A DNA stretch of 49,541 nt from Clostridia bacterium (lineage in GTDB: Bacteria > Bacillota > Clostridia > Oscillospirales > CAG-272): positions 1-49,541 of the forward strand of contig JAFULU010000283.1 of the NCBI GenBank assembly GCA_017483125.1. Direction: 5' to 3'. The translations under genes and the position numbers were made by a program. The notes under the pieces were generated by a model. The model was not told the origin of the DNA. It searched no databases and saw only the letters and a list, made by a program, of their open reading frames with translations. Positions 7,147-49,541 of this stretch are shown here, piece after piece; the stretch's first letter is position 1; every line of letters begins with the position of its first letter.

Positions 7147-7246
7147 AGATACAAGTTACAAGATACAAAGATACAAGATAGACAGAAGCCATAGCATATC
7201 TTGTATCTTGTATCTGCCGAGCCTGCTCGGCCGTATCTTGTATCTC
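7147..7246. repeat. B-type palindromic heptamer-array element, (GATACAA)n
   Basis: Left arm AGATACAAGTTACAAGATACAAAGATACAAGATA (7147-7180). Complementary arm ATATCTTGTATCTTGTATCT (7196-7215). GC hairpin GCCGAGCCTGCTCGGC (7216-7231), then CGTATCTTGTATCTC. Confidence 0.85.
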
Positions 7247-7317: not shown

Positions 7318-8502
7318 ATGATCTTCAGAAAGAAAGAGTGCGTGGCGATGCTGCTGGCCGGCGGTCAGGGCTCCCGTCTTTACGCTCTCACCAAGAAAGT
7401 CGCCAAGCCCGCCGTGCGCTTTGGCGGCAAGTACCGCATCATCGATTTCCCGCTGTCCAACTGCGTGAACTCGGGCATCGACACCGTGGGCGTGCTGACC
7501 CAGTACCAGCCCCTTGTGCTCAACGAGTACATCGGTAACGGACTCCCCTGGGATCTGGACCGCTCCTTTGGCGGAGTCAAGATCCTGCCCCCCTACCAGG
7601 GTCAGAAGAGCGCCGACTGGTACAAGGGTACCGCCAACGCCATCTACCAGAACCTGGCCTTCATCAACCGCTACGACGCCGACTACGTCTTGATCCTCTC
7701 GGGCGACCACATCTACAAGATGGACTACGACAAGATGCTGGACTTCCACAAGGCCAAGGGCGCCGACTGCACCATCGCCGTCATCGACGTGCCCATCGAG
7801 GAGGCCAGCCGCTTCGGTATCATGAGCACCAATCCCGACGGCTCCATCTACAAGTTCTCCGAGAAGCCCAAGAACCCCGACAGCACCAACGCGTCCATGG
7901 GTATCTACATCTTCAACCGCAAGAAGCTCTGCGACTACCTCATCGCCGACGAGGCGGATCCCAACTCCTCCAACGACTTCGGTAAGAACATCATCCCCAA
8001 TATGCTGGCCGCAGGCGAGAAGATGTTCGCTTACCCCTTCGAGGGATACTGGAAGGACGTCGGAACCATCTCCTCTCTGTGGGAGGCCAACATGGATCTG
8101 CTGGGAGATCAGCCCGTTCTGGATCTGTCGGGCAACGACTGGCGCATCTTCGCCCGTCACTCCGCCTCGGCTCCCCAGTTCGTGGGAGCTCGCGCGTCCA
8201 TTGAGAACTGCTACATAACCGAGGGCTGTGAGATCTACGGCACCGTCAAGAATTCGGTGATCGGTCCCGGCGTCAAGGTCATGGCAGGCGCGCACGTAGA
8301 GGACTGCGTCCTCATGGGTGACTGCGTGATCGAGGCGGGCGCTACAGTCCAGTACGCCATCATTGACTCCGACGTCACCGTCGGCGCGGGCGCCACCGTG
8401 GGCGCTCCCAGAAGCACGGGTGCCGAGATCGCCGTGGTCGGCGAGGGCATTACCATCGCGGCAGGCGCTACGGTTGAGCCCGGCGCCATGCTGTCTGAGT
8501 AA
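7318..8502 (+). CDS. glgC: glucose-1-phosphate adenylyltransferase
   Basis: 394 aa. N-terminal LAGGQGSRL nucleotidyl-transferase motif, [10 protein letters not shown], and a C-terminal left-handed beta-helix region. AAAGGAGG RBS. Confidence 0.92.
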
Positions 8503-9656: not shown

Positions 9657-9888
9657 GCCATTCCCCGCGCAAACTGCGCGGGGAATGGCTAAATGCAAAA
9701 TGCAAAGTGCAAAATGCAAAATCAAGGAACGAGAGAACAACTGCGCAGGGCTTAACGGAAACCATGTTATTCTTTTGGGGAACAATACTTTTTGGGATAT
9801 TATCCCACAAAATATTACCATAAAATCGGCTTTCGCGTCAGCGAAAGGCTTCCACAATTTTGCATTTTGCATTTTGCCTTTTGCAGTT
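9657..9888. repeat. A-type palindromic heptamer-array element, (AATGCAA)n, preceded by a 14-bp GC hairpin
   Basis: Hairpin GCCATTCCCCGCGC-AAACT-GCGCGGGGAATGGC (9657-9689). Array AAATGCAAAATGCAAAGTGCAAAATGCAAAAT (9691-9722). Unique core. Inverse array ATTTTGCATTTTGCATTTTGCCTTTTGCAG (about 9857-9888). The core is homologous to that of 45278-45531 in the opposite orientation. Confidence 0.85.
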
Positions 9889-9920
9889 TCATACCATTTC
9901 ATTTTTCGGAGGATACATAT

Positions 9921-12250: not shown

Positions 12251-12450
12251 AATCAATGCAAAGTCTATAGGCGATTGCAAAATGCTTCAAATTTGGGTTT
12301 GTCGGGCTGTTTATTGGAGTGTCTTTTACCCCTCATCCGTCGCCCGCCGCACTTGCTGGGCGACGGATGAGGGGGCGGGTGCGGTTCTCATCCTGCTACA
12401 CCGATAAATCGCAATTCTCCGCAATTATGCAATCACCCAAATGCAAGATC
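12251..12450. repeat. degenerate member of the palindromic element family, with a perfect 17-bp GC stem
   Basis: Degenerate AATGCAA-like units (12254-12285). Terminal motif TTCAAATTTGGGTTTGTCGG (12286-12305). Stem CCCCTCATCCGTCGCCC (12329-12345) pairs with GGGCGACGGATGAGGGG (12358-12374). Inverse-like end CGATAAATCGCAATT...CCCAAATGCAAG (about 12403-12447). Confidence 0.6.
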
Positions 12451-15029: not shown

Positions 15030-15166
15030 TTCAAATTTGGGTTTATCGAAGAGATACAAGATACGGAGATACAAGATACAAGATATAGAACGGCTGTTGC
15101 CGTAAGGATATTTCATATCTTGTATCGGCCGAGCTTGCTCGGCGTGTATCTTGTAACTTGTATCTC
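15030..15166. repeat. terminal 19-mer plus B-type (GATACAA)n palindromic element
   Basis: TTCAAATTTGGGTTTATCG (15030-15048). Arm GAGATACAAGATACGGAGATACAAGATACAAGATAT (15051-15086). Inverse arm ATATCTTGTATC (15115-15126). GC hairpin GGCCGAGCTTGCTCGGC (15127-15143). Then GTGTATCTTGTAACTTGTATCTC (15144-15166). Confidence 0.85.
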
Positions 15167-15204
15167 GCAGTAAAACTGCAATTTCCAGTTATTCCAATGC
15201 CGAT

Positions 15205-15233
15205 ATTATACCACAAAACCCATATTCTGTCAA
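15205..15233 (-). promoter_or_regulatory. sigma-A type promoter for the GH13 gene
   Basis: Minus strand reads TTGACA-gaatatgggttttgtgg-TATAAT (17-nt spacer, TGg extended -10). This places the whole 15030-15166 repeat inside a roughly 200-nt 5' leader. Confidence 0.7.
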
Positions 15234-17814: not shown

Positions 17815-18000
17815 CTTCAAATGGGAGGTTAGAAGTAATAGTGAAAAGTGAAGAAGTGAGGTGCAAAACCTTCGGTTTTGTCCATTTTATATGATTTAAT
17901 GCAGGAAACCGAAGGTTTCCAACCACACCTATACACTCTTCATTTTTGCCTATTACTTGAATTGCAGTTTGCCGGTCGCAGACCGAAAATGCAATTTACA
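17815..18000. repeat. palindromic element, divergent family member
   Basis: End CTTCAAATGGGAGGTTA (17815-17831). Inverted arms AAGTAATAGTGAAAAGTGAAGAAGTG (17833-17858) and CACTCTTCATTTTTGCCTATTACTT (17934-17958). Mutually complementary core hairpins lie at 17865-17879 and 17904-17920. Right end CGGTCGCAGACCGAAAATGCAATTTACAG (17973-18001) overlaps the stop codon at 17996-17998. Confidence 0.7.
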
Positions 18001-22594: not shown

Positions 22595-23521
22595 TCAGGT
22601 GTTCTTTTTGGGTTTCAGGAAATCCAAGAAGGATCTTTTTTGGGGCTTCTCCTCCGCTCTCGCCAGGGTGATGGCCTCGATGAGGGAGGTGTCCGCATTG
22701 GAGTTGGGAACATTGACCGAGAAGAAGATGCTGCTGTTGCACCGGCGGGGGACCATGATCGGTCTTCGGTCGCGGCCGATGATCTGAAAATCCCGCTTTT
22801 TGAAGTAGAACAAGCTGCTCTCGCAAAAGAAGAAGCCGTTTCCGTCCTCGCTATGGGCCCAGCCCACCGAGGAAAGCTCCTCCATGGTGGGGCACTCGTC
22901 AAAGATCTTGCCGTACAGCTGGAAAATGATCCAATGGTCGGCCACCTCGGGGACCACCTTGGACCGGTAGGAGATGTCGTCCTTGGCCTTCCGCATCACG
23001 ACGTATTTGCCGTCGCAGGCCTTGAAGAAGGCCTCGTCGAAGTGGGTCTTTTTTCCGTACATTTCGGGGATATAGGGCTTGTCGGCAGTTTTCAGCCGAA
23101 AGGCCACCACGTCCCCCACCTCGAAGACCGACTCCAGGTTCAGCTTGATCCGGATCTTCTTTTTCTCCCCTTGGGGGGACAGGAGCTTTTCGCGGAACTC
23201 GGCCAGCGCCTTTTTTCGTTTCTGTAGGGTCTTTTCATCCTCCGCCCACAGCTCCAGGCCGAAGTCCTCGTCGATCATTTGGACGGCGCGGTCGCGGACG
23301 TCGTCGGTGAGGATGCCCTTGCGCCACATGAAATCCGCCAGAGAGTAGTAGTAGTTGCACCACTCCTCCTCGTCGGACTCGCGGCAGATGTGGGTGCGGA
23401 CGTAGGCGTCCAGCTTCTCCAGGGCGGTCTCCACGTCGTAGTAGTAGAAGGCGGCCTGGTATTCGTATTTCAGGTCTTGGGCGGTATCGTTGCCCGTGAT
23501 GCTGACGTTCCATGCGCCCAT
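22595..23521 (-). CDS. hypothetical protein with a DUF4259-like N-terminus
   Basis: ATG at 23521 with AAAGGAG upstream. MGAWNVSITGNDTAQDL resembles the MGAWG..DND.A.D start of DUF4259 proteins (from memory, unverified). Its stop lies 12 nt before the ARH gene start and overlaps that gene's RBS. Confidence 0.45.
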   Translation of the reverse strand: MGAWNVSITGNDTAQDLKYEYQAAFYYYDVETALEKLDAYVRTHICRESDEEEWCNYYYSLADFMWRKGILTDDVRDRAVQMIDEDFGLELWAEDEKTLQKRKKALAEFREKLLSPQGEKKKIRIKLNLESVFEVGDVVAFRLKTADKPYIPEMYGKKTHFDEAFFKACDGKYVVMRKAKDDISYRSKVVPEVADHWIIFQLYGKIFDECPTMEELSSVGWAHSEDGNGFFFCESSLFYFKKRDFQIIGRDRRPIMVPRRCNSSIFFSVNVPNSNADTSLIEAITLARAEEKPQKRSFLDFLKPKKNT

Positions 23522-23546
23522 GGGAGGCTCCTTTCGGGAATGCAAA

Positions 23547-23581
23547 ATTTAAAATGCAAAATGCAAGATCAAGAAACGGGG
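23547..23581. repeat. truncated A-type heptamer array
   Basis: GAATGCAAAATTTAAAATGCAAAATGCAAGATCAAGAAACGGGG parallels the left arm plus core start of the 9691-9735 copy (…AAATGCAAAATCAAGGAACGAGAG). There is no matching inverse arm. Confidence 0.6.
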
Positions 23582-23582
23582 G

Positions 23583-23930
23583 TTAAATTTGGGTTTATCG
23601 GTGGGTTTGCTACCCGTAGCGAATCGCGAATTACTATGTACGCGTTCTCCCTCACCCGCCTGCGGGTGGGAGCTCCCTCCCGGAGGGAGCCTTGGGGCGC
23701 GGGGCAAAATCACTTATCGGGCAACAGATTTCCGCGGGGCAAGGTATGAGGCCCCCTCCGGGAGGGGTAGCGAAGCGGCAACGCGGTAGTGAATGGCCGC
23801 CTGTGGCGGGCAGAGCCGCGTTGTGACCGACCCGCAGGGAGACCTCCCGCGAAGCGGTGGGGGAGCCTGCGTACATCGGGACCATGATATTCTTTCGGTT
23901 TTTCAAACCAACCGCTAAATGGCAATTTAC
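23583..23930. repeat. 348-bp TIR-bounded element with a GC-rich, multiply nested hairpin core (candidate structured RNA or MITE)
   Basis: Left end TTAAATTTGGGTTTATCGGTGGGTTTG. Right end CAAACCAACCGCTAAATGGCAATTTAC (23904-23930) is its imperfect inverse. A long-range stem pairs 23636-23659 with 23854-23876, and several helices nest inside. Confidence 0.6.
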
Positions 23931-26077: not shown

Positions 26078-27565
26078 ATGACTGTAAGCCGTGTTATCGC
26101 GATCATCGCGACCGCCGATACCATCCGTATTCTTGTTGATTCCCCCATCCCCGCCGACGCCGAGGTGAAGGTCTTTGCCTTCTCCCCCATTCTGGCCGAG
26201 GAGGTGGAGCCTCTGACCGCCCTGACCCCCGCTGTGGAGGGCGATACCCTGACCGTCCCCCGCTTCGCCTGCGGCCGTGACGGCGTGTGCCTGTCCTACG
26301 GCGTGCAAATCGACGACGAGCTGCTGGAGGGCAAGCAGTACGTGGAAGCCATCACCGCATCCCGGCGGGATTTCCCCTACCCTGTGGTGGACACCAAGAA
26401 GGGCCTGCAGGTGGTGGACTACAAGGACGCCAAGGAGCTGGGGGTGCGCCATTCCGCCATCAACGTCAACGAGGGCGATTTCCTCATGCCCGCCTACGAG
26501 GAGGGCAACACCATTGAGTTCGAGCACGACGGGCGGGTGTTCTACTTCCGCAAGTCCCACGTGGAGAGGATGGACGAGACCTTCGTGGGCCTGACCGAGA
26601 TCGGCTGTGTGATCTCCTTCATCCTGCTCAATTCCCCCCACTGGCGGTGCGACATTGACCCCGCCTTCTGGGAGGTCATCAAGCACCCCGCCTACACGGG
26701 GAAGCGTGAGGACGGCACGGGTCTGATCTCGGCCTTCAACCTGGTCACCGAGGAGGGTCTGGCGTACTACCGCGCCTTCATCGCCTTCCTCACCGACCGC
26801 TACACCCGTGAGGACAAGGCATACGGTCGGGTCGTGGGCATGATCGTGAGCAACGAGGTAGACGCGGGCTACATCTGGGCCAACTCGGGCGAGATGACCC
26901 TGGAGGAGTACGTGACCGAGTACGCCACGGCTCTCCGCGTCACCTGGCAGACCGCCGCCTCCATCTACGCCCATATGCGGGTCTTCGTCTCCATCGACCA
27001 CTTCTGGACCGCCGCCATGGACGAAAGCCAGCCTCTGCGCTACTACAAGACCCGTGATATGCTGGTCTTCCTCAACCAGCTGGCCACCGAGCAGGGACAG
27101 ATCCCCTGGCACATCGCCCACCATCCCTACCCCGAGGATCTCAACTACCCCGACTTCTGGAACGACAAGCTGGCCACTCCCGACGACGACGCCCCCATCA
27201 TCACCTTCAAGAACCTGGAGGTACTGGCGCGGTTCATCCACCGTCCCGAGTTCCTGCTGAACGGTGAGCGCCGCCGCATCATCCTGTCGGAGCAGGGCTT
27301 TAACTCCCATTGGACCCCCGAGAGCGAGATCCTCCAGGCCTGTGCCTACGGAAGAGCCTACCGCAAGATCATGGAGATCCCCGAAATTGACTCCTTCATT
27401 CTTCACTCCCACCATGACAACGCCTTCGAGTTCGGTCTGAACCTGGGTCTGTGGCGGAGAAAGAAGGAGGGTCACGGCATGGAGGCTCCCAAGCCCATGT
27501 ACTACGTGTTCAAGGCCATTGATCAAAAGGATGAGAAGGGCGTGTATCACTGGGAGAGATACTGA
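26078..27565 (+). CDS. putative glycoside-hydrolase-like TIM-barrel protein (DUF5722-like)
   Basis: 495-aa cytoplasmic protein. The family assignment is from memory of similar Clostridia proteins (…VSNEVD…, …LSEQGF…), not from a search. Confidence 0.4.
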   Translation: MTVSRVIAIIATADTIRILVDSPIPADAEVKVFAFSPILAEEVEPLTALTPAVEGDTLTVPRFACGRDGVCLSYGVQIDDELLEGKQYVEAITASRRDFPYPVVDTKKGLQVVDYKDAKELGVRHSAINVNEGDFLMPAYEEGNTIEFEHDGRVFYFRKSHVERMDETFVGLTEIGCVISFILLNSPHWRCDIDPAFWEVIKHPAYTGKREDGTGLISAFNLVTEEGLAYYRAFIAFLTDRYTREDKAYGRVVGMIVSNEVDAGYIWANSGEMTLEEYVTEYATALRVTWQTAASIYAHMRVFVSIDHFWTAAMDESQPLRYYKTRDMLVFLNQLATEQGQIPWHIAHHPYPEDLNYPDFWNDKLATPDDDAPIITFKNLEVLARFIHRPEFLLNGERRRIILSEQGFNSHWTPESEILQACAYGRAYRKIMEIPEIDSFILHSHHDNAFEFGLNLGLWRRKKEGHGMEAPKPMYYVFKAIDQKDEKGVYHWERY

Positions 27566-27567
27566 CA

Positions 27568-27645
27568 AAGATACAAGATACAAAGATACAAGATAACGCA
27601 CGCCGCCGCTCTCTATCTTGTATCTTGTATCTCGTATCTTGTAAC
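27568..27645. repeat. B-type (GATACAA)n palindromic element
   Basis: AAAGATACAAGATACAAAGATACAAGATA (27568-27596), a 18-nt GC-rich loop, then ATCTTGTATCTTGTATCTCGTATCTTGTAAC (27615-27645). It starts 3 nt after the stop codon. Confidence 0.85.
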
Positions 27646-27704
27646 TCATACTTCCCCCTCCCCCCGCATAGGATATACCAATTATCCACACGGAGGTCAC
27701 GGGT

Positions 27705-32953: not shown

Positions 32954-33065
32954 TCATGAAAAATCTTATGACTGTGCCATGTATTCCGTGTCGGTCTGAT
33001 CCTTGACTTTTCTCTCGGGGTATGCTATACTATTAACAGAATCCAACGAAAGGGAATACGACAGC

Positions 33066-33746
33066 ATGAAAACCGTTTTTGAAACTCACTTACATTTTTC
33101 GCCCAATTGGATCATGATGATCGTTTCCATCGTATACATTCTATTCGGAATAAGATTATTGAAAAAAAGATTGGAGAAATACCGGTCCCGGGCACAATTG
33201 ATTTGCCCGATCCTGTTTATAAGTATTGGCGGCATCGGCTTGATCCTGTTTATTTTCCTGTTTATCCGTCAAATGCCCACCCCTTTGTTCTTTTCTGCGG
33301 TGCCTTTCCTGCTGCTCCTTCCGCTCATTGGTTTTTTGAACTTTGATAAGGCTGAACCCATATCGGAATTTGTAAAGCCGATCGGTCTATTCATTTTTGT
33401 CACCATATTCTGTATGATAACCTCTTTGGCCGCCTGCTTCCTTATGAGCGACCTGATTCAAAAAGCACAAATTGAACGGTTCGTCTATGACACGTATCAA
33501 GAAGGTAACGCTCTTGCAGTCGAAGGTGCGATTCAGGATTTTCATCCAATGCCGGAAACGCTACACGATACCGAATCCTTCACAGTAGATGGTATTACAT
33601 TCTACTATAGTAACCATAAAGAGTCCTTTTATTACAGTACATGCGCATTTGACGGCGGATACATCACACGGAATGGCCAGATGGTGAAAATTTGGTACGT
33701 CGAAGTGGATGGATACAACTATATCGTGCGTATCGACTTATTATAG
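33066..33746 (+). CDS. hypothetical polytopic membrane protein in an AT-rich islet
   Basis: ATG at 33066. About four TM helices, then a soluble C-terminal domain. GC is clearly lower than the flanks: sampled 60-nt lines give 17/60 and 29/60 G+C. Confidence 0.55.
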   Translation: MKTVFETHLHFSPNWIMMIVSIVYILFGIRLLKKRLEKYRSRAQLICPILFISIGGIGLILFIFLFIRQMPTPLFFSAVPFLLLLPLIGFLNFDKAEPISEFVKPIGLFIFVTIFCMITSLAACFLMSDLIQKAQIERFVYDTYQEGNALAVEGAIQDFHPMPETLHDTESFTVDGITFYYSNHKESFYYSTCAFDGGYITRNGQMVKIWYVEVDGYNYIVRIDLL

Positions 33747-33753
33747 AAAATGA

Positions 33754-33798
33754 AAAGCACCACAGGGAGTCCAATACTCTCTGTGATGCTTTCTTGTT
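33754..33798. terminator. bidirectional terminator between the membrane-protein gene and metA
   Basis: AAAGCACCACAGGGAG…CTCTCTGTGATGCTTT imperfect stem with T-runs on both strands. Confidence 0.7.
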
Positions 33799-34716
33799 TT
33801 ACTGAATATCCTTCACATCATAAGGCGTAGTCTGATAAACATAATAATTCAGCCAATTGGAATAGAACAGATTCGCGCAGGACCTCCACCGCACGATAGG
33901 CTCCCTCTCGGGATCATCGTCGGGGAAATAGTGGGCGGGGGGCTCGATGGGGAGTCCCGCTTTCTTGTCGCGGAGGTACTCGTTCTTCAGGGTGTCGGCG
34001 TCGTACTCCGAGTGGCCCATGACGTAGACCTGCTTGCCTCTTGCGGTCATGGCGCAGAAGACCCCTGCCTCCTTGGAGCTGGCGACGATGCGCAGCTCGG
34101 GGATGGCCTCCATGTCCTCGCGCTTGGTGGTGGTGTGGCGGGAATGGGGGACGTTGAAGACGTCGTCGTAGCCGCGGAAGAGCATGGAGCGGTTGTAGTC
34201 CAGCTTATGCTCGTAGACACCGAAGAGCTTCTTTTCCAGGGGGTACTTGGGGATGCCGTAGTGGTAGTAGAGTCCCGCCTGGGCGCCCCAGCAGATGTGG
34301 AGGGTGGAGGTGACGTGGGTCTTGCTCCACTCCATGATCTCGCAGAGCTCGGGCCAGTAGTCCACCTCCTCAAAGGGGATCTGCTCCACGGGGGCTCCCG
34401 TGATGATCATGCCGTCGTACTTTCTGTCCCTCACCTCGTCAAAGGTCTTGTAGAAGGCCAGCATATGCTCCTGGGAGGTGTGGCTGGACTTATGGGTGGC
34501 GGTCTGGAGCAGCTCCAGCTCCACCTGGAGGGGGGTATTGCCGATGAGACGGGCGATCTGGGTCTCGGTCTCGATCTTCTTGGGCATGAGGTTGAGCATG
34601 AGGATATTCAGGGGGCGGATATCCTGGGTGATGGCGCGGGTCTCGGTCATGACGAAGATGTTCTCGTTGAGAAGGGTATCCGTCGCGGGGAGAAGATTGG
34701 GAATTTTGATGGGCAT
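33799..34716 (-). CDS. metA: homoserine O-acyltransferase (MetA family)
   Basis: [11 protein letters not shown]…[15 protein letters not shown]…HICWGAQAG are canonical MetA motifs. 305 aa. Confidence 0.92.
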
Positions 34717-38286: not shown

Positions 38287-41200
38287 TTACTGTTCTTGTT
38301 TGTAGGCAATGGCAGAGCGGCCGTAGGCGTAGAGGGCTCTGACCAGCGCGGCCATTTCGGTATTCTCGCTGTTCTGCTTGGCGTAGACGTAGGACCTCAC
38401 GCTATAGGTCAGGGTCTGGATCACCTCACCATCCACCGAAAGCTCGGCGGTGAATACCTTGTCGAACTCGGTGGCGTAGATGGGATCGGTGTAGAGGATG
38501 TAGGTGTCCGTCGTATCCTCCACGAGAGTCAGAGCCGCGGCGGTATAGGTTTTACCGTTCACGGTCAGAGTTACGCCCGTAAGGTCAGCGGCCTTGACCT
38601 TGAAGTAGAGGCGGTTAACGTGGCCGAAGCGTACGCCCGCGGAGGTGAAGCGAATGTCATCGCGGGTCTTGTCCGACAGGGTAAAGTCGGTGTCGGTCAC
38701 GGCCTCCCACTCGGAGGGAGCGGCCGCGAAGCCCTCGCTGACGGGGGTGTCCACGTTGAAGCCGGTGTAGTCCTGGGCGGCGTCGCCGTAGACCAGGAGG
38801 TCGGCCAGGAGGGTGGCCAGGGCCTTGTTATCGGGGTTGGCGGCCAGGGCGTCGTCGCAGTACTGACGGACGGAGTAGGACGCCTTGGCATCCACCACCA
38901 GCTCGGTGCCATCCTCCAAGGTCAGAATCAGCTCGGCCTTGATATTCTCACCCATGCACTGGGGAGCGATGCCCGTCAGGGAGAAGACGTACTCGCCCTC
39001 GGTCTCGGCGGGCACACCCGTGACGTACTCGGTCTTGCCGCGATAGGTGAAGCGCATGGCGGGAGTGCCGTAGGAGGGGTCGGCCTTGGCGTAGTAGTTC
39101 ATGGTAAGGGAGGTGCCCAGGGTGAGGGAGGCGGAGGTGAGGTCGAAGTAGTCATCCAAAAAGTGGAATGTAGCGCAAAGCAGTTCGTCATTTTCTTCGG
39201 ATATAGTCACTCTTCGCCACTCGTTTTTAGTGGCACCAAAATGAACATCAGTAAGGCTTTCACATCCCGCAAAAGCATAGGGTTCAATACTCGTCACGCT
39301 ATGAGGAATCGTAATGCTAGTCAAACTACTGCAATTGTTGAACGTGTAATGGTTAATACTTTTTAGTCCTTTAGGTATGGTAACGCTTGCCAAACTACTA
39401 CAATTTCTAAATGCACTAATCCCGATATACTTTACCCCATCAGGAATCACAATATCTGTCAAACTCTCACAATCACAGAACGCAGAATCGCCAATACTGG
39501 TCACACTTTTCGGAATAGTGATGGTTTCTAAGCTTCCGCAACCGTTGAATGTGGACTCTCCAATGTTTGTCACTCCTTCGGGAATAGTAAAACTCTTCAG
39601 ATTTACGCAACCGCTGAAAGCAGTATCACCAATACTCTTCACGCCTGCAGGAATGACGATGCTCGTCAATTCCTTACAAGCCAAAAAAGCCTTGCTTCCG
39701 ATACTTATCACACTTTCGGGAATGACAATACTCGTCATTTTTTCACGAGCATAGAATGCATAATCACCAATGTTTGTTACGCTTCCATCCACCGGAATAG
39801 TACTGTTATAGCAACCGGCAACTAGCGTTTTGCTTGCTGTCTCAATCAAGCAATTGCCAGCACTGTGGTAGACTGGATTTCCTTCCGCAACTGTAATTTG
39901 ACTCAAATTAGAACAACCCAAAGCATAACTGCTAATGTACACCACTTCTTTGGGAATATGGATTTTTGTTAGATTACGGCAAGCCTGAAATGCATAATCA
40001 CCTATGCTTATCACGCACTCGGGAATAGATATACTCGATAAATAATAACACCCGTAAAAAGCATAGTCACCGATATGTATCACGCTCCCATCCTTAGGAA
40101 TGATACTATTTCTACAACCTGCAATTATTGTTTTGGAAGTTGTATCAATCAGACAATTTCCACGACTGTAATATCTAATATTACCATCCGCAACCGTAAT
40201 CTGTCTTAAGTTGTAACAAAAACCAAACGCAGAATTACCGATGCTATTGACATTTTGGGGAATATATATGCTTGTGACTTTCACACAACTCTCAAATGCG
40301 CCTTCTCCAATGCTCGTCACATTTTCAGGAATATTAATGCTTGTTAAACCACGGCAGCAGTTGAATGCGTAATCACCAATGCTCGTCACATTTTCGGGAA
40401 TGGTAAAACTCGTTAAGCCATAGCAATCAGCAAGTAAATGATCTTCAATTCTCGTTAAGCCAGTTGGAAGATGGACGGTGCGGAGACTCTTGCACCCCGA
40501 AAATGCGGAACTGCCAATTTTTGTCACACTTTCAGGAATACCAATATACGTCAAACTTTCGCAACTTGAGAATGCACCCGCACCAATGCTCGTCACTCCT
40601 TCGGGAATATGAATGCTTTTCAGATTTCTGCATATCCAAAATGTGCAATCATCAATCTTCGTTACATTTTCGGGAATAACAACACTCACCAAACTGCTGC
40701 AATTGTAGAATGCATACATTCCAATATTCGTAACGCTTTGAGGGATCGAAATATTCGTTAGGCTATCACAATCGAAGAATGCCCAATCAGCTATGCCAAC
40801 CGTATCCTGACGAAATACCGCTTCAGTAATACCCGACACATAACCGACTACCCATTTATCCACATATTTTAACCCATTGTAAGTTTCAATCACCTTTGAA
40901 CATCCCTTAAACGCATCCTTCCCCATACTTATCACGCTATCTGGAATAACAACGCATATCAAATTATTGCAATCAGAGAATACTCCTGCACCGATACTTG
41001 TCACACCTTCTGGAATCGTGATGCTCGTGAGGCTACTGCAATTGTAGATTGCATAATTGCTAATGCTCGTTACGCTGTTGGGAATCGTGATGCTCGTGAG
41101 GCTACTGCGGTAAGAGAATGCAGCATAACCAATGCTCGTCACCGCATCCCCCTCCGGGCTCGTCGGCGGGATATTCACCACGGTATCGGTACAGCTCCCG

Positions 41201-42002: not shown

Positions 42003-43553
42003 TTACTTGGCGTAATCGGTGGCGCGGCTCTCGCGGATAAGGTTGATCTTGATCTGGCCGGGGTACTTGACCTCTTCCTGGATCTTCTGGGCCATCTGAC
42101 GGGCGATGAGGGGCATATCCTCGTCGTGGACCGTATCGGGCTTGACCATCACGCGCAGCTCGCGGCCGGCCTGAATGGCAAATGCTTTCTCGATGCCTGT
42201 GAAGCCCTCGGCGATCTCCTCCAGCTTCTCCAGACGCTTGATGTAGTTCTCCATGTCCTCGCGGCGTGCACCGGGACGGGCGGCCGAAATGGCGTCGGCG
42301 GCCTGAACCAGAACGGCAATGACGGTCTGGGGCTCTACGTCTCCGTGGTGGGCCTCGATGGCGTGCACCACGTCACGGCCCTCCTTGTACTTCTTGGCGG
42401 CATTGACGCCGATCTGCACGTGAGAGCCCTCCACGTCGTAGGGGAAAGCCTTACCGATGTCGTGCAGAAGTCCTGCTCTGCGAGCAAGGACGGGATCCAC
42501 GCCCAGCTCCTCCGCCATGATACCGGCCAGGATGGCCACCTCGATGGAGTGCTGGAGTACGTTCTGACCGTAGCTCGTGCGGTAGCGCAGACGGCCCAAG
42601 AGACGAACCAGATCAGGGTTAATGCCATGGATGTTGACTTCAAAGGTTGCGCGCTCGCCCGCCTGCTTGATGGCGGCGTCCACGTCCTTCTTGGCCTTCT
42701 CCACCATCTCCTCAATGCGGGTAGGATGGATACGGCCGTCCGAAATGAGCTTCTCCAGAGCCAGTCTCGCCACCTCGCGGCGGATGGGGTCGAAGCCCGA
42801 AATGGTGATGACCTCGGGGGTATCGTCAATGATGAGCTCCACGCCCGTCAGGGTCTCCAGCTTCTGGATGTTGCGTCCCTCGCGGCCGATGATGCGGCCC
42901 TTCATCTCCTCGCTGGGCAGTGCCACAGAGGAAATGGTGGACTCGGCAACGAAATCACCCGCGCAACGCTGAATGGCCAGAGCCATGATGCGGCAGGCCT
43001 TATCGTCGGCCTCCTCACGGTACTGCTCCTCCAGCTCGGCAATGCGCTGTGCCTGCTCGTGGCGGATCTCCTCCTCCAGCTCGGACACCAGCTCTGCCTT
43101 GGCCTGCTCGGCGGTATAGCCCGAAACCTTCTCCAGCATGAGCTTCTGCTCCTCCAGAGCGGCGTCGATCTGCTCTCTGACTACGTCGCAGTCCTTGAGC
43201 TTCTTGTCCAGCTGCTCGTTCTTCTTGTCCAGTTGCTCGCTCTTCTTGTCCAGATTCTCTTCCTTCTTGGAGAGGCGGGACTCGGTGCGGGACACCTCGG
43301 CGCGGCGCTCCTTGATCTCCTGCTCCATGTCGTTCTTCTGGCGCATGATCTCTTCCTTGGCAGAGAGAAGAGCTTCCTTCTTCAGGGTCTCGGCCTGCTT
43401 GGTGCCTTCCTCGACCAGCTCCTTCGCCTTCTGCTCGGCGGTGCCGATCTTGGCCTCGGCCACGTGCTTGCGGTAGAGAATACCCACCAGAGCACCCACA
43501 GCCAGACAGACGATACCGACGATCACCACGATCAGAATTTCAATCGGTTCCAT
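42003..43553 (-). CDS. rny: ribonuclease Y
   Basis: N-terminal TM helix ([27 protein letters not shown]), coiled-coil region, KH domain ([11 protein letters not shown]) and HD domain (LLHDIGK). ATG at 43553 with AAAAGGAGGTG upstream. Confidence 0.93.
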
Positions 43554-43743: not shown

Positions 43744-45240
43744 TCAAGCCAGCGCGCGAAGGGTCTCGCAAACCAACCTGTAGGTGCGCTCCACCGAGGG
43801 GATGGAGAGCATCTCGCGGGGGGTATGGATGTCCCGCATATCGGGGCCCACCGAAATGATGTCCATCTCCCCCAGCTTATCGCAGAGGATGCCGCACTCC
43901 AGACCTGCGTGAATGACCTCGATGCGGGGGGTTACGCCATAGATACCCTCGCTGACGCGGGTCCAGAGGTCGCGGAGGGGAGAGACGGGGGCGTAGTCCC
44001 AGCCGGGATAGCGGGCGCGGTGGGTAGCCTCACCACCCAAAACGGCGGCCAGAGCCGTCAGCTCCCGCTGGGAGTCGTCCAGATGGCCGTTCGAGGCGGA
44101 GCGGGTGGACATGGAGAATTTGACCGCGGTGGGCTTCCCCTCCCCGTCGGTGAGGGTCTTGATAATACCCAGGTTGCGGGAGTGCGCCACCAGGCCCTTT
44201 ACGTGGGCGGACATGGACAGGACGCCGTCGCGGACGAGGGTCAAAAGGGACAGGACGGCGTGGGTTGTCTTGTCGTCCATGGACAGGACGGGGGGATCGG
44301 GCAGGATCTCGGCGGTACAGGTGAAGGACTTATCGGCGGGGATCATGTTGGGCTCGGAGCGGAGCTTTTCGGCCTCGGCGGTCACAGCGCGGGCGAAATC
44401 CTCGGCGTGGGCGGTGTCGCGGAGGTCCACCGTCACGGTGCAGTCGCGGGGAATGGCGTTGTCCTTACCGCCGCCGCTCACCGAGATCAAGGAGAAATCG
44501 TAGGGCTCGGTCAGGGCGGAGAGGATGCGGCCCATAGCCTTGATGGCGTTGGTGTGTCCCTCGTGGATCTCCACCCCGGAATGCCCTCCCGTAAAGCCGT
44601 CCAGAGTCACCCTCACGGCCACGCCTTCAGCACTCTCGCAGGTCACAGGGAGGGTAATATCGGTGCGCATACCGCCCGAGCAGCCCGCGGTGAGGACACC
44701 CTCGGCCTCGCTGTCCAGGTTGATCATGGTATGTGCGGTAGCTTCCATAGCCACAGGATCAAAGGCCCACGCGCCCTCCAGGCCCGTCTCCTCGGAGACG
44801 GTGAAGAGGCACTCAATGGCGGGATGAGGCTGGGGGGGATTATCCAGGATGGCCAGCATCATGGCCACGGCGATGCCGTCGTCACCGCCCAGGGTGGTGT
44901 CGGTGGCGGAGATCCAGCCCTCGGCATCGACCTTGAGCTTCAGACCGTCGGTGGCGAAGTTATGGGTGGAGTCGGCGGTCTTCTCACCTACCATATCGGT
45001 GTGGCCCTGGAGTATGACGGCGGGAGCGGACTCATGACCTTCACTGGCGGGGAGCTTGATGAAGACGTTGTGGACGGCGTCGCGGTAGCAGGACAGACCG
45101 CGGGCCTTGGCGAAGGCCTCGATATAGTCGGCGATGGCGCGCTCGTCTCCCGATACGTGGGGGATGGCACAGATGTCCTCGAAGAAGGAGAGGACGGACG
45201 CGGGCTCGTAGCCCGAGAGGATGCGGGTGGTGGTTGACAT
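43744..45240 (-). CDS. pepD: aminoacyl-histidine dipeptidase (M20C, PepD-like)
   Basis: 498 aa. The N-terminus (…FEDICAIPHVSGDERAIADYI…) and the LQGHTDMV and GGDDGIAVA motifs are typical of PepD. Confidence 0.8.
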   Translation of the reverse strand: MSTTTRILSGYEPASVLSFFEDICAIPHVSGDERAIADYIEAFAKARGLSCYRDAVHNVFIKLPASEGHESAPAVILQGHTDMVGEKTADSTHNFATDGLKLKVDAEGWISATDTTLGGDDGIAVAMMLAILDNPPQPHPAIECLFTVSEETGLEGAWAFDPVAMEATAHTMINLDSEAEGVLTAGCSGGMRTDITLPVTCESAEGVAVRVTLDGFTGGHSGVEIHEGHTNAIKAMGRILSALTEPYDFSLISVSGGGKDNAIPRDCTVTVDLRDTAHAEDFARAVTAEAEKLRSEPNMIPADKSFTCTAEILPDPPVLSMDDKTTHAVLSLLTLVRDGVLSMSAHVKGLVAHSRNLGIIKTLTDGEGKPTAVKFSMSTRSASNGHLDDSQRELTALAAVLGGEATHRARYPGWDYAPVSPLRDLWTRVSEGIYGVTPRIEVIHAGLECGILCDKLGEMDIISVGPDMRDIHTPREMLSIPSVERTYRLVCETLRALA

Positions 45241-45277
45241 AGGGTTACTCCTTTATGATGTATGGGGTGGGAGAAAT

Positions 45278-45531
45278 TTCAAATTTGGGTTTATCGGGTA
45301 GTTTGAGAATGCAAAATGCAAAATGTAAAATGCAAAATGAATGAAGCCTTTTGCTTACGCAAAAGCCAATCTTTATGGTAAAGTTTGTAATTCAAAAACC
45401 GAAAAGTCAGTGTCCCCTATAGGATAATCATTTCTGTGTAGGACACGTCACCCCGTCTCTCGTTCTCTGATTTTGCATTTTGAATTTTGCATTTTGCATT
45501 TCGGGCGCAGCCCGACAGACCCCAATTTGAA
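45278..45531. repeat. complete A-type element: TIRs, inverted (AATGCAA)n arrays and a unique core
   Basis: TTCAAATTTGGGTTTATCGGG (45278-45298) against CCCGACAGACCCCAATTTGAA (45511-45531). Arrays at 45307-45343 and 45469-45501. Core hairpin at 45346-45367. Confidence 0.85.
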
Positions 45532-45540
45532 AAATTCAAT

Positions 45541-45586
45541 CAAAAACACAAAGAGGAAAGAAACTCCCATAGCTCCTTTCCTCTCC
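45541..45586 (-). terminator. intrinsic terminator after mreB
   Basis: Minus strand reads AGAGGAAAG-15 nt-CTTTCCTCT followed by TTGTGTTTTT. Confidence 0.75.
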
Positions 45587-45595
45587 TTGTTTGGT

Positions 45596-46624
45596 TTAAG
45601 AATTGACTCTGGACGGCAGAGTGATCACGCCCTCGGGCATACCGCCGAGGTAGGGCAGAAGGCTTCCCGCGCCCAGGACGGTACTGCTGATGGGCTTCTT
45701 GGCCACATAGGCGGGAATGCCCGTGACCCGCTCAATGAGCTTATCCAGTCCGCGGAGGAGGCTTCCGCCGCCCGTCAGGACCATGCCCTTCTGCAGGATG
45801 TCACCCACCAGCTCGGGGGGCGTCTGCTCCACAACCGAGCAGATGGAGTCCAGGATGGCGGTGATGGGCTCGTACAGGGCTTCGATCATCTCGCGGGAGC
45901 TGATGAGGACCTCTCGCTGGGTTCCCTCGGTGAGGGAGCGGCCCGTGACCTTCATGTAGCCCGTCTTTTTATGCTCGTACACGTCGCCGATGTTGATCTT
46001 GATGTCCTCGGCGGTGCGCTCCCCGATGAGGATGTTGTAGCGGCGGCGGAGGTAGCTTTGAATGGCCTCGTCAAACTTGTCGCCGCCCACGGGGATGGAG
46101 TCCGCCACCACCACGCCGCCCATGGAGAGCACCGCGATGTCGCTGACGCCGCCGCCGATGTTGACCACCATACTGCCCACGGGGGACTTGATGTCCAGTC
46201 CCGCGCCGATGGCTGCGGCCTTGGGCTCCTCGATGAGGTAGGTCCGTCTGGCCCCCGCCTCACGGGAGGCTTCCATGATCGCCCGCATCTCCACCTCGGT
46301 AATGCCCGTGGGTACGCAGATGAGCACGCGGGGAGGGATCCACACCTTACCGCAGGCGCGGCGGATGAAGTAGCGCAGCATCTGGAGGGTGACCTCGTAC
46401 TGGCTGACGGTGCCGTTCTTCATGGGGCGCAGGGCGTCGATGTGGTCGGGGGTACGCCCCAGCATCTCCATGGCGTCCTGACCCACCTTGACCACGCGGT
46501 CGGTGGAAACGTCAATGGCCACCACAGAGGGCTCCTTGAGGACGATGCCCTGTCCTTGGACGTAGACCAGCACAGAGGCTGTTCCGAAATCTATGGCGAT
46601 ATCCCGCGTAAATTTCTCGAACAC
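45596..46624 (-). CDS. mreB: rod shape-determining protein MreB
   Basis: The actin-like ATPase N-terminus begins at FEKFTRDIAIDFGTASVLVY. There is no ATG; GTG at 46624 has GAGGTG 6 nt upstream and gives a 342-aa product. The ORF-track start at 46783 is an upstream read-through. Confidence 0.88.
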   Translation of the reverse strand: MFEKFTRDIAIDFGTASVLVYVQGQGIVLKEPSVVAIDVSTDRVVKVGQDAMEMLGRTPDHIDALRPMKNGTVSQYEVTLQMLRYFIRRACGKVWIPPRVLICVPTGITEVEMRAIMEASREAGARRTYLIEEPKAAAIGAGLDIKSPVGSMVVNIGGGVSDIAVLSMGGVVVADSIPVGGDKFDEAIQSYLRRRYNILIGERTAEDIKINIGDVYEHKKTGYMKVTGRSLTEGTQREVLISSREMIEALYEPITAILDSICSVVEQTPPELVGDILQKGMVLTGGGSLLRGLDKLIERVTGIPAYVAKKPISSTVLGAGSLLPYLGGMPEGVITLPSRVNS

Positions 46625-49493: not shown

Positions 49494-49541
49494 TTCAAAT
49501 TTGGGTTTATCGGTCTGTGACCGAAATGCAAAATGCAAAAT
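49494..49541. repeat. left end of another A-type element, cut by the window edge
   Basis: TTCAAATTTGGGTTTATCGG, then hairpin CGGTC-TGT-GACCG (49511-49523), then AAATGCAAAATGCAAAAT running to the last base. Confidence 0.8.

Follow-up and report, generated by a model that had tools for sequence, protein, structure and literature searches.

Architecture of the mreB–dipeptidase spacer

The window, a 49,541-nucleotide stretch of DNA from an uncultured Clostridia bacterium, contains a 254-bp foldback unit at positions 45278–45531. The unit lies between two genes that are both on the minus strand: mreB (PF06723), with its stop codon at 45596, and an M20 dipeptidase gene, with its start codon at 45240 and an AAGGAG ribosome-binding site (RBS) in front of it. 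A hairpin resembling the intrinsic terminator of mreB (45550–45586, minus strand) is situated outside the unit. This location agrees with a preliminary description of the sequence, in which the unit was placed between the mreB terminator and the dipeptidase start.

Read along the plus strand, the unit comprises a terminal motif (M1), a left arm, a core, a right arm, and an inverted terminal motif (M1'). M1 (TTCAAATTTGGGTTTATCGGG, 45278–45298, plus strand) forms the dipeptidase-proximal end, 37 nt from the start codon. M1' (CCCGACAGACCCCAATTTGAA, 45511–45531, plus strand), an inverted variant copy of M1, forms the mreB-proximal end. The two ends belong to an imperfect outer inverted repeat of 22 nt (45277–45298 and 45511–45532) with 86% complementarity. 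The left arm (45308–45342, plus strand) holds a tandem array of 4.6 AATGCAA units at 45308–45339. The right arm (45463–45501, plus strand) is its inverse and holds 4.6 units of ATTTTGC at 45470–45501. The two arrays pair as 38-nt arms that are 87% complementary and spaced 117 nt apart.

The core of about 120 nt (45343–45469) is poorly conserved outside a box, a hairpin, and the motifs CTTTTCGG and CCTATAGGGG. The hairpin, GCCTTTTGC-TTAC-GCAAAAGCC, occupies 45346–45367 and is present in all six aligned copies of this interior (see below). Its gene-sense (minus-strand) sequence is GGCTTTTGC-GTAA-GCAAAAGGC. The box, TTACCATAAA (45372–45381, minus strand), is directly upstream of the hairpin in gene orientation.

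The 254-bp unit folds as DNA with −51.6 kcal/mol (z = −6.6), a value reached by none of 200 shuffled sequences. The whole mreB–dipeptidase spacer folds as RNA with −116.4 kcal/mol (z = −7.1), and again no shuffle is as good. The imperfect terminal repeats, the inverted heptamer arrays inside them, and the single long hairpin around a core with a small hairpin of its own, all proposed in the preliminary description, are thus confirmed. No real open reading frame (ORF) lies within the 254 nt, and no transposase or recombinase was detected among the scanned ORFs of the window; the preliminary description had likewise noted no ORF and no transposase or integrase.

The heptamers of the unit are abundant in the window. 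The 14-mer AATGCAAAATGCAA occurs 17 times with at most two mismatches, versus 0.13 expected, and a second heptamer, AGATACA, also occurs 17 times, versus 0.10 expected.

A conserved end motif frames dispersed elements

The consensus of M1 is the 19-mer TTCAAATTTGGGTTTRTCG. Its inner side runs on as GnnnGTT, beyond which the 122 copies diverge completely. The window contains five copies in one orientation and one inverted copy. An exact-pattern scan of genome contigs, with one genome per species, returned at least 111 matching stretches, often at contig ends, from about 20 uncultured Clostridia species of animal guts. Beside the window, 116 related loci (numbered L001 onward; about 0.7 Mb) were analyzed. 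Where they derive from metagenome-assembled genomes (MAGs), these are labeled Eubacteriales, Clostridia, Oscillospiraceae, or Candidatus Avispirillum and come from goat, sheep, deer, and other guts. L001 represents a 78-kb gut-metagenome scaffold (ENA ERZ28654221) that is 99.94% identical to the window over 15.8 kb. Elements are scattered over unrelated loci in some 20 species, in keeping with the multi-copy, non-coding, intergenic repeat first described.

The 122 M1 copies of the related loci have unique outer flanks and a sharp outer edge. The flanks contain no conserved target motif, and their profile is flat except for a T at position −1 in 48% of the copies. M1', with the consensus CGAYAAAC[CT][CG]CAATTTGAA, is the inverted partner of M1 in 38–41 copies at a distance of 143–548 nt, and complete framed elements are 143–548 nt long. 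All 39 complete elements fold, at about −0.4 to −0.6 kcal/mol per nt.

In some M1 copies, a further shared module, GGCGATTGCAAAATGC or TGTAACnnTTCAGCCGnC, adjoins the outer side (window 12251–12285 and 12420–12445; L008, L049, L051, L096, and L108; the 3148 region of L038). The same modules recur in inverted orientation at the opposite end, so there are subfamilies with longer ends. In addition, L002, L004, L005, and many contigs of the M1 scan, which come from independent assemblies, break off in a heptamer array or no more than a few nucleotides from M1. Given how many contigs end there, the M1 and heptamer repeats probably fragment MAG assemblies of this lineage systematically.

The frames enclose interchangeable palindromic interiors

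The interiors of the frames are unrelated to each other and always palindromic. Arrays with a period of 7 number 76 in the 0.7 Mb, versus 24 with a period of 8 and 25 with a period of 10. Those with at least 2.5 units number 68, and most of these form inverted pairs. The heptamer families include AAGATAC (27 arrays), AAAATGC (11), and AATAATG (9), together with AATGCGT, AATTCAC, and others. Each family has about 4.6 units per array, inverted pairs, and a family-specific core. The interior of L077 is built differently, as a 209-nt foldback of stacked GC hairpins. A GC-rich module (...CCCTCTCACCGCTTCGCGGAGCTCCCCCAGAGGGGGAGCC...) recurs in many M1 frames, including window 23600–23860 and L012, L018, L043, L051, L099, and L115, and constitutes another dispersed hairpin family.

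The interior of the 45278–45531 unit, referred to as the AATGCAA cassette, is found in seven full copies: 9691–9889 and 45308–45501 in the window, L001:5508–5747, and one each in L031, L104, L159, and L173. The arms are about 33 nt long. The copies are mutually 74–85% identical, and the core at 45343–45469 shares 74–80% identity with the others. Three of the seven (9691–9889, L104, and L159) have no M1 frame. The copy at L001:5508, which has a degenerate box, was left out of the alignment of the other six. In these six, TACCATA is invariant and is followed by a 7–9-bp hairpin whose pairing is kept. The hairpin of the copy W45506rc carries one two-sided compensatory change, and that of L031 is kept with a changed and register-shifted stem, as judged by eye.

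The metagenome pattern TACCATA-N20-50-TTTGCATTTTGCA proved too permissive. It matched 120 loci, among which only L159, L173, L217, and a variant, L165, are relevant. At L165:~7400–7560, on a contig of 55% GC, inverted AAGTGCA arrays surround a core of ~45 nt with TACCATA and are followed by an RBS and an ATG. L165 was found by means of the TACCATA pattern, and its box is therefore not independent evidence.

Since the AATGCAA cassette is found without a frame and frames hold unrelated interiors, the unit at 45278–45531 is not an archetype, contrary to the preliminary description. It is a composite, with a cassette nested in a frame. The elements are accordingly built in two nested layers, the M1/M1' frame and an interchangeable palindromic cassette inside it.

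Elements are replaced as whole units between strains

The turnover of elements between strains is the most informative result of the analysis. Contigs encoding identical MreB, which include two NCBI MAG assemblies, have flanks that are 98.6% identical over 3.5 kb and display four alleles of the mreB–dipeptidase spacer. M1' and M1 are kept at identical positions in all four. The allele of the window and L257 (355 nt) contains the AATGCAA cassette. The allele of L250, L253, and L255 (351 nt) contains a different AATGCAA cassette in the opposite orientation, with 80% identity; L258 carries the same allele sequence, but its contig ends inside the element. The allele of L251 (244 nt) contains an AGATACA foldback with the M1' variant of its own family, and the allele of L254 and L256 (200 nt) contains only a GC hairpin of about 60 nt. 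In-situ inversion of the core was considered for this locus and rejected, as the flipped allele is only 80% identical.

Replacement is also seen at other sites. The 5' region of the alpha-amylase gene has three alleles, one of which is an unframed AATGCAA-type cassette in a conspecific strain. In the orthologous pairs L031/L070, L035/L053, L111/L047, and window/L013, M1 is common and the interiors are different; M1' was confirmed to be common as well in L031/L070, L035/L053, and window/L013. A 181-nt element at 17815–17995 is present in three and missing from five contigs that encode an identical neighboring protein, and L013, a related species, lacks it too. At fixed positions, strains about 1.4% apart have gained, lost, or replaced entire elements. 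The filled and empty sites that the preliminary description proposed to look for are represented by the 17815–17995 element and the four spacer alleles. Occupancy is hypervariable, and the identical occupancy in all relatives that was held to speak against mobility did not occur.

M1-framed AGATACA elements at unrelated loci (L251:3590–3738 compared with L053, L007, L046, and L104) are 92–95% identical. L007, L046, and L053 are from other MAG assemblies than L251, and the origin of L104 was not checked. The host flanks are 80–93% identical, and the comparison hints at recent spread or horizontal movement of the elements.

L031:1–141 and L070:4433–4573 are from MAGs assigned to different species. 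Their M1-side flanks are 99–100% identical, the flanks on the other side are 86% identical, and the interiors differ. The element apparently lies at a recombination breakpoint, unless the MAG binning is chimeric.

Position relative to genes and promoters

The elements are located immediately upstream of ribosome-binding sites or immediately downstream of stop codons. Among 118 M1 ends, 50 are 10–49 nt from an RBS and start codon that read away from the element. In complete elements, a gene start is faced 13 times by the exact-M1 end and three times by M1'. Unframed arrays abut ribosome-binding sites as well (9691, 23539, L104, and L159), and elements also lie between the cistrons of the glg cluster. 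Short intergenic spacers may account for part of this closeness to start codons.

A perfect sigma-70 promoter, TTGACA-17-TATAAT with a TG extension, is located upstream of the alpha-amylase gene (15205–15233, minus strand). A whole M1-bounded element is placed between this promoter and the RBS, and hence within the 5' untranslated region (5'UTR) of the gene. A sigma-70 promoter just outside M1' accompanies only 1 of 38 elements. The amylase promoter is conserved in L013 and L242, and the content of the 5'UTR differs in all three sequences.

A probable superfamily of non-autonomous foldback repeats

[quoted passage not shown] Like MITEs in the strict sense, the elements are small, non-coding, and dispersed, possess terminal inverted repeats, and are polymorphic for presence and absence. 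They lack the fixed-length target-site duplication of such elements, and strict MITE status is therefore not shown. The term MITE/REP-like in the preliminary description is appropriate for the inverted ends, the non-coding sequence, and the polymorphism; it does not extend to a target-site duplication or to a GTAG/CGTC tag.

Several observations weigh against the superfamily as just defined. First, no consistent target-site duplication was detected in 38 elements for k = 2–5 relative to shuffled pairings; matching flanks were six 2-mers versus 2.0 expected, no 3-mer, one 4-mer, and one 5-mer. The insertion at 17815–17995, mapped exactly against the empty alleles, shows no duplication either, so that the check for duplications suggested earlier was negative on both counts. 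Second, no transposase or recombinase was found in the window, in the 116 related loci, or between distant M1 pairs. For this search, ORFs of at least 150 aa from the 117 sequences (116 loci and the window) were clustered, and those that were recurrent or enclosed by M1 were examined with Pfam and found to be ordinary genes only. In the same sequences, including the intervals between distant M1 pairs, no cognate autonomous insertion sequence with the same ends was found. No RAYT gene was seen among the ORFs of the related loci examined, and no recombinase domain was found in the scanned ORFs of the window or recorded for the genes of L001. A transposase or recombinase gene flanked by the same termini, sought at the suggestion of the preliminary description, was thus found in neither the window nor the 116 loci. 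Third, identities of only 74–85% make the AATGCAA cassettes older than a typical MITE burst. Fourth, different members repeatedly occupy exactly the same site, which is not ordinary MITE behavior. Finally, folding does not favor the mRNA-sense strand over the antisense strand (mean +4.4 kcal/mol; the p value of 0.044 is for the opposite direction), and strand asymmetry therefore gives no support to a role at the RNA level.

Under the superfamily interpretation, the elements would spread by copy-and-paste through a trans-acting enzyme that recognizes the M1 ends or the folded DNA. Candidates for the enzyme are a transposase or an HUH/RAYT-like protein encoded elsewhere. Replacement at the same site may occur by ectopic gene conversion, template switching, or end-targeted insertion. 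Anchoring of these events in the shared ends is suggested because the flanks have no common target motif and variants of the ends travel with the interior.

The elements would also be co-transcribed with neighboring genes, as they lie in 5'UTRs and intercistronic spacers. Their ~30-bp stems would then probably act on the mRNA, either through processing by a double-strand-specific RNase or through effects on stability or translation. By analogy with Correia elements (PMC2649163), the transcribed stems are likely to be substrates of double-strand RNases or barriers to them. A role of the palindrome at the DNA level, in propagation, is at least as likely as a role in RNA.

Alternative explanations

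The AATGCAA cassette may instead be a cis-regulatory module of the host, with mobility being secondary. In such a module, TACCATA would serve as the −10 element, the hairpin would stabilize the 5' terminus of the transcript, and the proximal UUUUGCA array and M1 would provide an unstructured leader before the RBS. The layout is suggestive. In six of the seven full cassettes, box, hairpin, and array are directed toward the RBS and ATG of the next gene, and the hairpin is placed where the transcript would begin. The TACCATA box, invariant in the aligned cassettes, could be a −10-like element, and by eye an overlapping hexamer varies across copies in the TAnAAT-like manner expected of one. Arrays or M1 end 10–49 nt from start codons, and a post-transcriptional function has been proposed for the TAACTGA heptamers that lie just ahead of start codons in Beggiatoaceae (PMC4679880).

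However, neither a promoter scan nor the six-copy alignment reveals a consistent −35 element inside the cassette. A scan for consensus promoters detected none on the gene strand within the 45308 core, nor any in the 9691 copy. The core is flipped before the same kind of gene in L001:5508 and in the 351-nt allele of the mreB–dipeptidase spacer, and two of the four alleles of that spacer have no cassette at all. Moreover, the downstream genes are functionally unrelated. A primarily regulatory cassette is therefore regarded as unlikely, if still deserving of some weight. M1 itself was considered as a SigD-type or other −10 element and was rejected by eye because of its variable R position and the unrelated genes downstream.

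Another view would make M1 and M1' the fixed anchors of a recombination process in which a dedicated enzyme swaps structured non-coding cassettes in 5'UTRs and intercistronic spacers. This appears decidedly improbable. If true, such exchange would generate strain-specific leader hairpins and heritable, reversible variation in the expression of core genes.

A slender chance is given to the proposal that M1 and M1' are sites of dedicated site-specific recombination, as in an inverton or a 'non-coding integron', which would produce programmed strain or phase variation. The four alleles with identical frame positions, two of them with the same cassette family in opposite orientations, are in line with such a system, as are the lack of a target-site duplication and the contrast between sharp, conserved ends and variable, yet always palindromic, interiors. 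However, at 80% identity the oppositely oriented alleles are different copies and not products of a flip, and the glgD–glgA cassette has the same orientation in five samples. In addition, no recombinase gene adjoins any copy, and cassettes are also found unframed.

The heptamer arrays might also act as operator-like sites for a DNA-binding protein that reads heptads, with convergent arrays looping or occluding the core. The omega repressor of pSM19035, for instance, reads 7-bp heptads. A 7-bp period and ~4.6 units per arm recur across the arrays, and the arrays adjoin gene starts. However, at least six unrelated heptamers share the architecture, so that as many proteins would be needed. The complementarity of the arms is conserved, but the heptad sequence is not, and many frames hold GC hairpins without heptads. 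These features render an operator function very improbable.

Local origin of the arrays by polymerase slippage, with merely convergent likeness between loci and no dispersed element, deserves next to no credence. Many bacteria are enriched in heptameric simple sequence repeats, for which slippage has been suggested as the cause (PMC4692102), but the shared cores already contradict this origin here: a non-repetitive core, box, and hairpin are common to unrelated loci. In addition, AGATACA elements have loop sequences and an inserted GCCGAGC..GCTCGGC hairpin in common, and copies at different loci are 92–95% identical.

Other elements and genes in the window

The second full AATGCAA cassette of the window (9691–9889, plus strand) lies between glgD and glgA and has no M1 frame. 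Its box, hairpin, and array point toward the RBS and the ATG (9921) of glgA. Four other contigs match the window in the length of the glgD–glgA spacer and the orientation of its core; they differ only by two single-nucleotide polymorphisms, in the right array of the window. A further M1 with an AATGCAA array (49494–49541, plus strand) is cut by the end of the window. Its complete copy is L001:5508–5747, which has a degenerate box and a core turned around with respect to the frame. The element at 23539–23601 (plus strand) consists of a single AATGCAA array (23539–23566) at the RBS of a minus-strand gene with its start at 23521, followed by an M1 copy and GC hairpins, and is a composite or fragment.

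Three elements are AGATACA-array foldbacks. The one at 15030–15184 (plus strand) is bounded by M1 and M1' and is situated downstream of the perfect promoter in the alpha-amylase 5' region. The other two have no M1 frame: that at 7147–7245 (plus strand), between glgB and glgC, carries an inserted GCCGAGCCTGCTCGGC hairpin, and that at 27565–27647 (plus strand) directly follows a stop codon. The 181-nt foldback at 17815–17995 (plus strand), with AGTGAAG-like arms and degenerate M1-like ends, is located directly after the stop codon of an ABC ATPase gene. Lastly, the element at 12286–12419 (plus strand) is composed of M1, a GC-rich hairpin, and an M1'-like end, and contains no heptamer array.

All related copies named in the preliminary description therefore exist, but half of them belong to other heptamer families and have the architecture, not the sequence, in common with the unit. 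The AATGCAA family among them is represented by 9691–9889, 23539–23566, and 49494 to the window end, whereas the copies at 7147, 15030, and 27568 are of the AGATACA type, that at 17815 is AGTGAAG-like, and that at 12286 is an M1 motif with a GC hairpin and without an array.

The genes of the window are ordinary and include a glgB-glgC-glgD-glgA cluster and genes for amylase, glycogen phosphorylase, ABC transporters, RecD2, MreB, and RNase Y. Look-ups of the exact glgA and phosphorylase proteins returned no record. A tandem repeat of 21 nt within the RNase Y gene (43200–43269; 3.3 copies, 85% matches, in frame) is probably a coiled-coil repeat. Two islands of low GC content, 33000–33800 and 39200–41000, have 37–45% GC, versus about 62% elsewhere, and the second encodes large LRR_5-repeat proteins. 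Both may have been acquired horizontally.

Comparison with known repeats

No Rfam family matches the window at the gathering score, and a permissive scan returned only sub-threshold noise of miRNA hairpins. A tRNA scan of the window gave nothing. BLAST of the unit against plasmids and phages yielded matches at chance level only (E = 0.2–0.9). A full-text literature search found no paper containing the motif strings, in accordance with the initial impression that the family was unrecognized in the literature.

The closest described phenomenon is the heptamer arrays of Xanthomonas. The GGGAATC arrays of Xanthomonas and the GGGGA(C/T)T arrays of Nostoc have a mode of about four units and are about 90% intergenic (Rehm et al. 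2015, PMC4692102). Xanthomonas contains 70–75 convergent array pairs per genome that are capable of forming stem-loops, the arrays vary in length and sequence among close relatives, and heptanucleotide repeats of Calothrix are cited in the same study (PMC4692102). The arrays described here likewise consist of tandem 7-nt units, about four in number, that are intergenic and mostly arranged in convergent pairs. The Xanthomonas and Nostoc arrays differ in being closest to the end of the upstream gene, at an average of 28 nt (PMC4692102). Their units are G-rich and have been studied as quadruplex formers, whereas AATGCAA, AGATACA, and AATAATG contain no G runs. In addition, no conserved core, M1-type frame, or whole-unit replacement has been reported for them.

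BIMEs are mosaics of modules. REPINs and their RAYT transposases have been studied mainly in Pseudomonas and enterobacteria, whereas the hosts here are Clostridia. The REPIN unit is a pair of inverted repeats that forms one long hairpin, with RAYTs as the transposases (Bertels and Rainey 2011, PMC3116915; PMC3337134). REPINs and the present elements have in common an inverted-doublet hairpin, a non-autonomous nature, an intergenic location, the absence of terminal duplications, a high copy number, and persistence at loci. REPs (repetitive extragenic palindromic sequences) are palindromes of 20–40 nt with a GTAG or CGTC tag (PMC3733652). Unlike REPs, the outer end of M1, TTCAAATTT, starts with TTCAAA, and the flank profile contains no GTAG or CGTC. 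The arms are tandem heptamers, unlike those of REPINs, and no RAYT gene is seen in the related loci.

Correia elements of Neisseria are characterized by a specific 26-bp repeat and by duplication of a TA target. They are bounded by inverted repeats, contain a conserved core, lie adjacent to genes with which they are co-transcribed, and can create promoters at their ends (PMC2649163). Their hairpin is bound or cleaved by RNase III, and their presence depends on the strain (PMC2649163). The elements here are also small, inverted-repeat-bounded, and located beside genes, with a conserved core and a presence that varies by strain. However, their end sequence is different, they have no fixed duplication, one frame accommodates many interiors, and there is no sequence similarity.

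In the pneumococcal BOX element, boxA and boxC ends enclose a variable number of tandem boxB units and form stable RNA structures (PMC3049150). It resembles the present elements as a modular intergenic repeat of Firmicutes with terminal modules around internal units. However, boxB is about 45 nt long, the units do not form two inverted arrays, no exchange of interiors takes place between families, and the sequences are dissimilar. TAACTGA repeats of Beggiatoaceae, cyanobacteria, and Bacteroidetes occur in 2–6 copies a few nucleotides from the start codons of unrelated genes (PMC4679880). The heptamer arrays here are similarly found just upstream of start codons. TAACTGA is a different heptamer; apart from one indirect case in 170, its repeats are all direct, and they have neither foldback nor core nor frame. 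No match in sequence to any of the bacterial repeats compared here was obtained.

The Foldback (FB) transposons of Drosophila have long terminal inverted repeats made of short tandem repeats and snap back into a hairpin. They are eukaryotic, of kilobase size, and built from 10–31-bp units. The resemblance is an architectural analogy only, with no evolutionary link.

Implications

The element type is a new form of an already known kind of bacterial repeat. Neither Rfam nor the plasmid and phage collections and papers that were searched contain it. It is more than a routine addition on account of its two-layer design, the presence of several heptamer families in one frame, and multi-allelic replacement in conspecific strains. 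With about one element per 5–6 kb in the window, the elements make up a dense and unannotated repeat system in gut Clostridia represented by MAGs only. Heptamer arrays are over-represented in bacteria, and the occurrence of several families in one frame offers a tractable system for studying their origin and spread. The differences between conspecific strains at element sites, such as the four alleles before one housekeeping gene, are ready-made strain markers. If the stems act on mRNA, swaps at the strain level would be a source of expression variation, and the elements are a plausible cause of strain-specific differences in the expression of glycogen metabolism, cell-shape, and peptidase genes.

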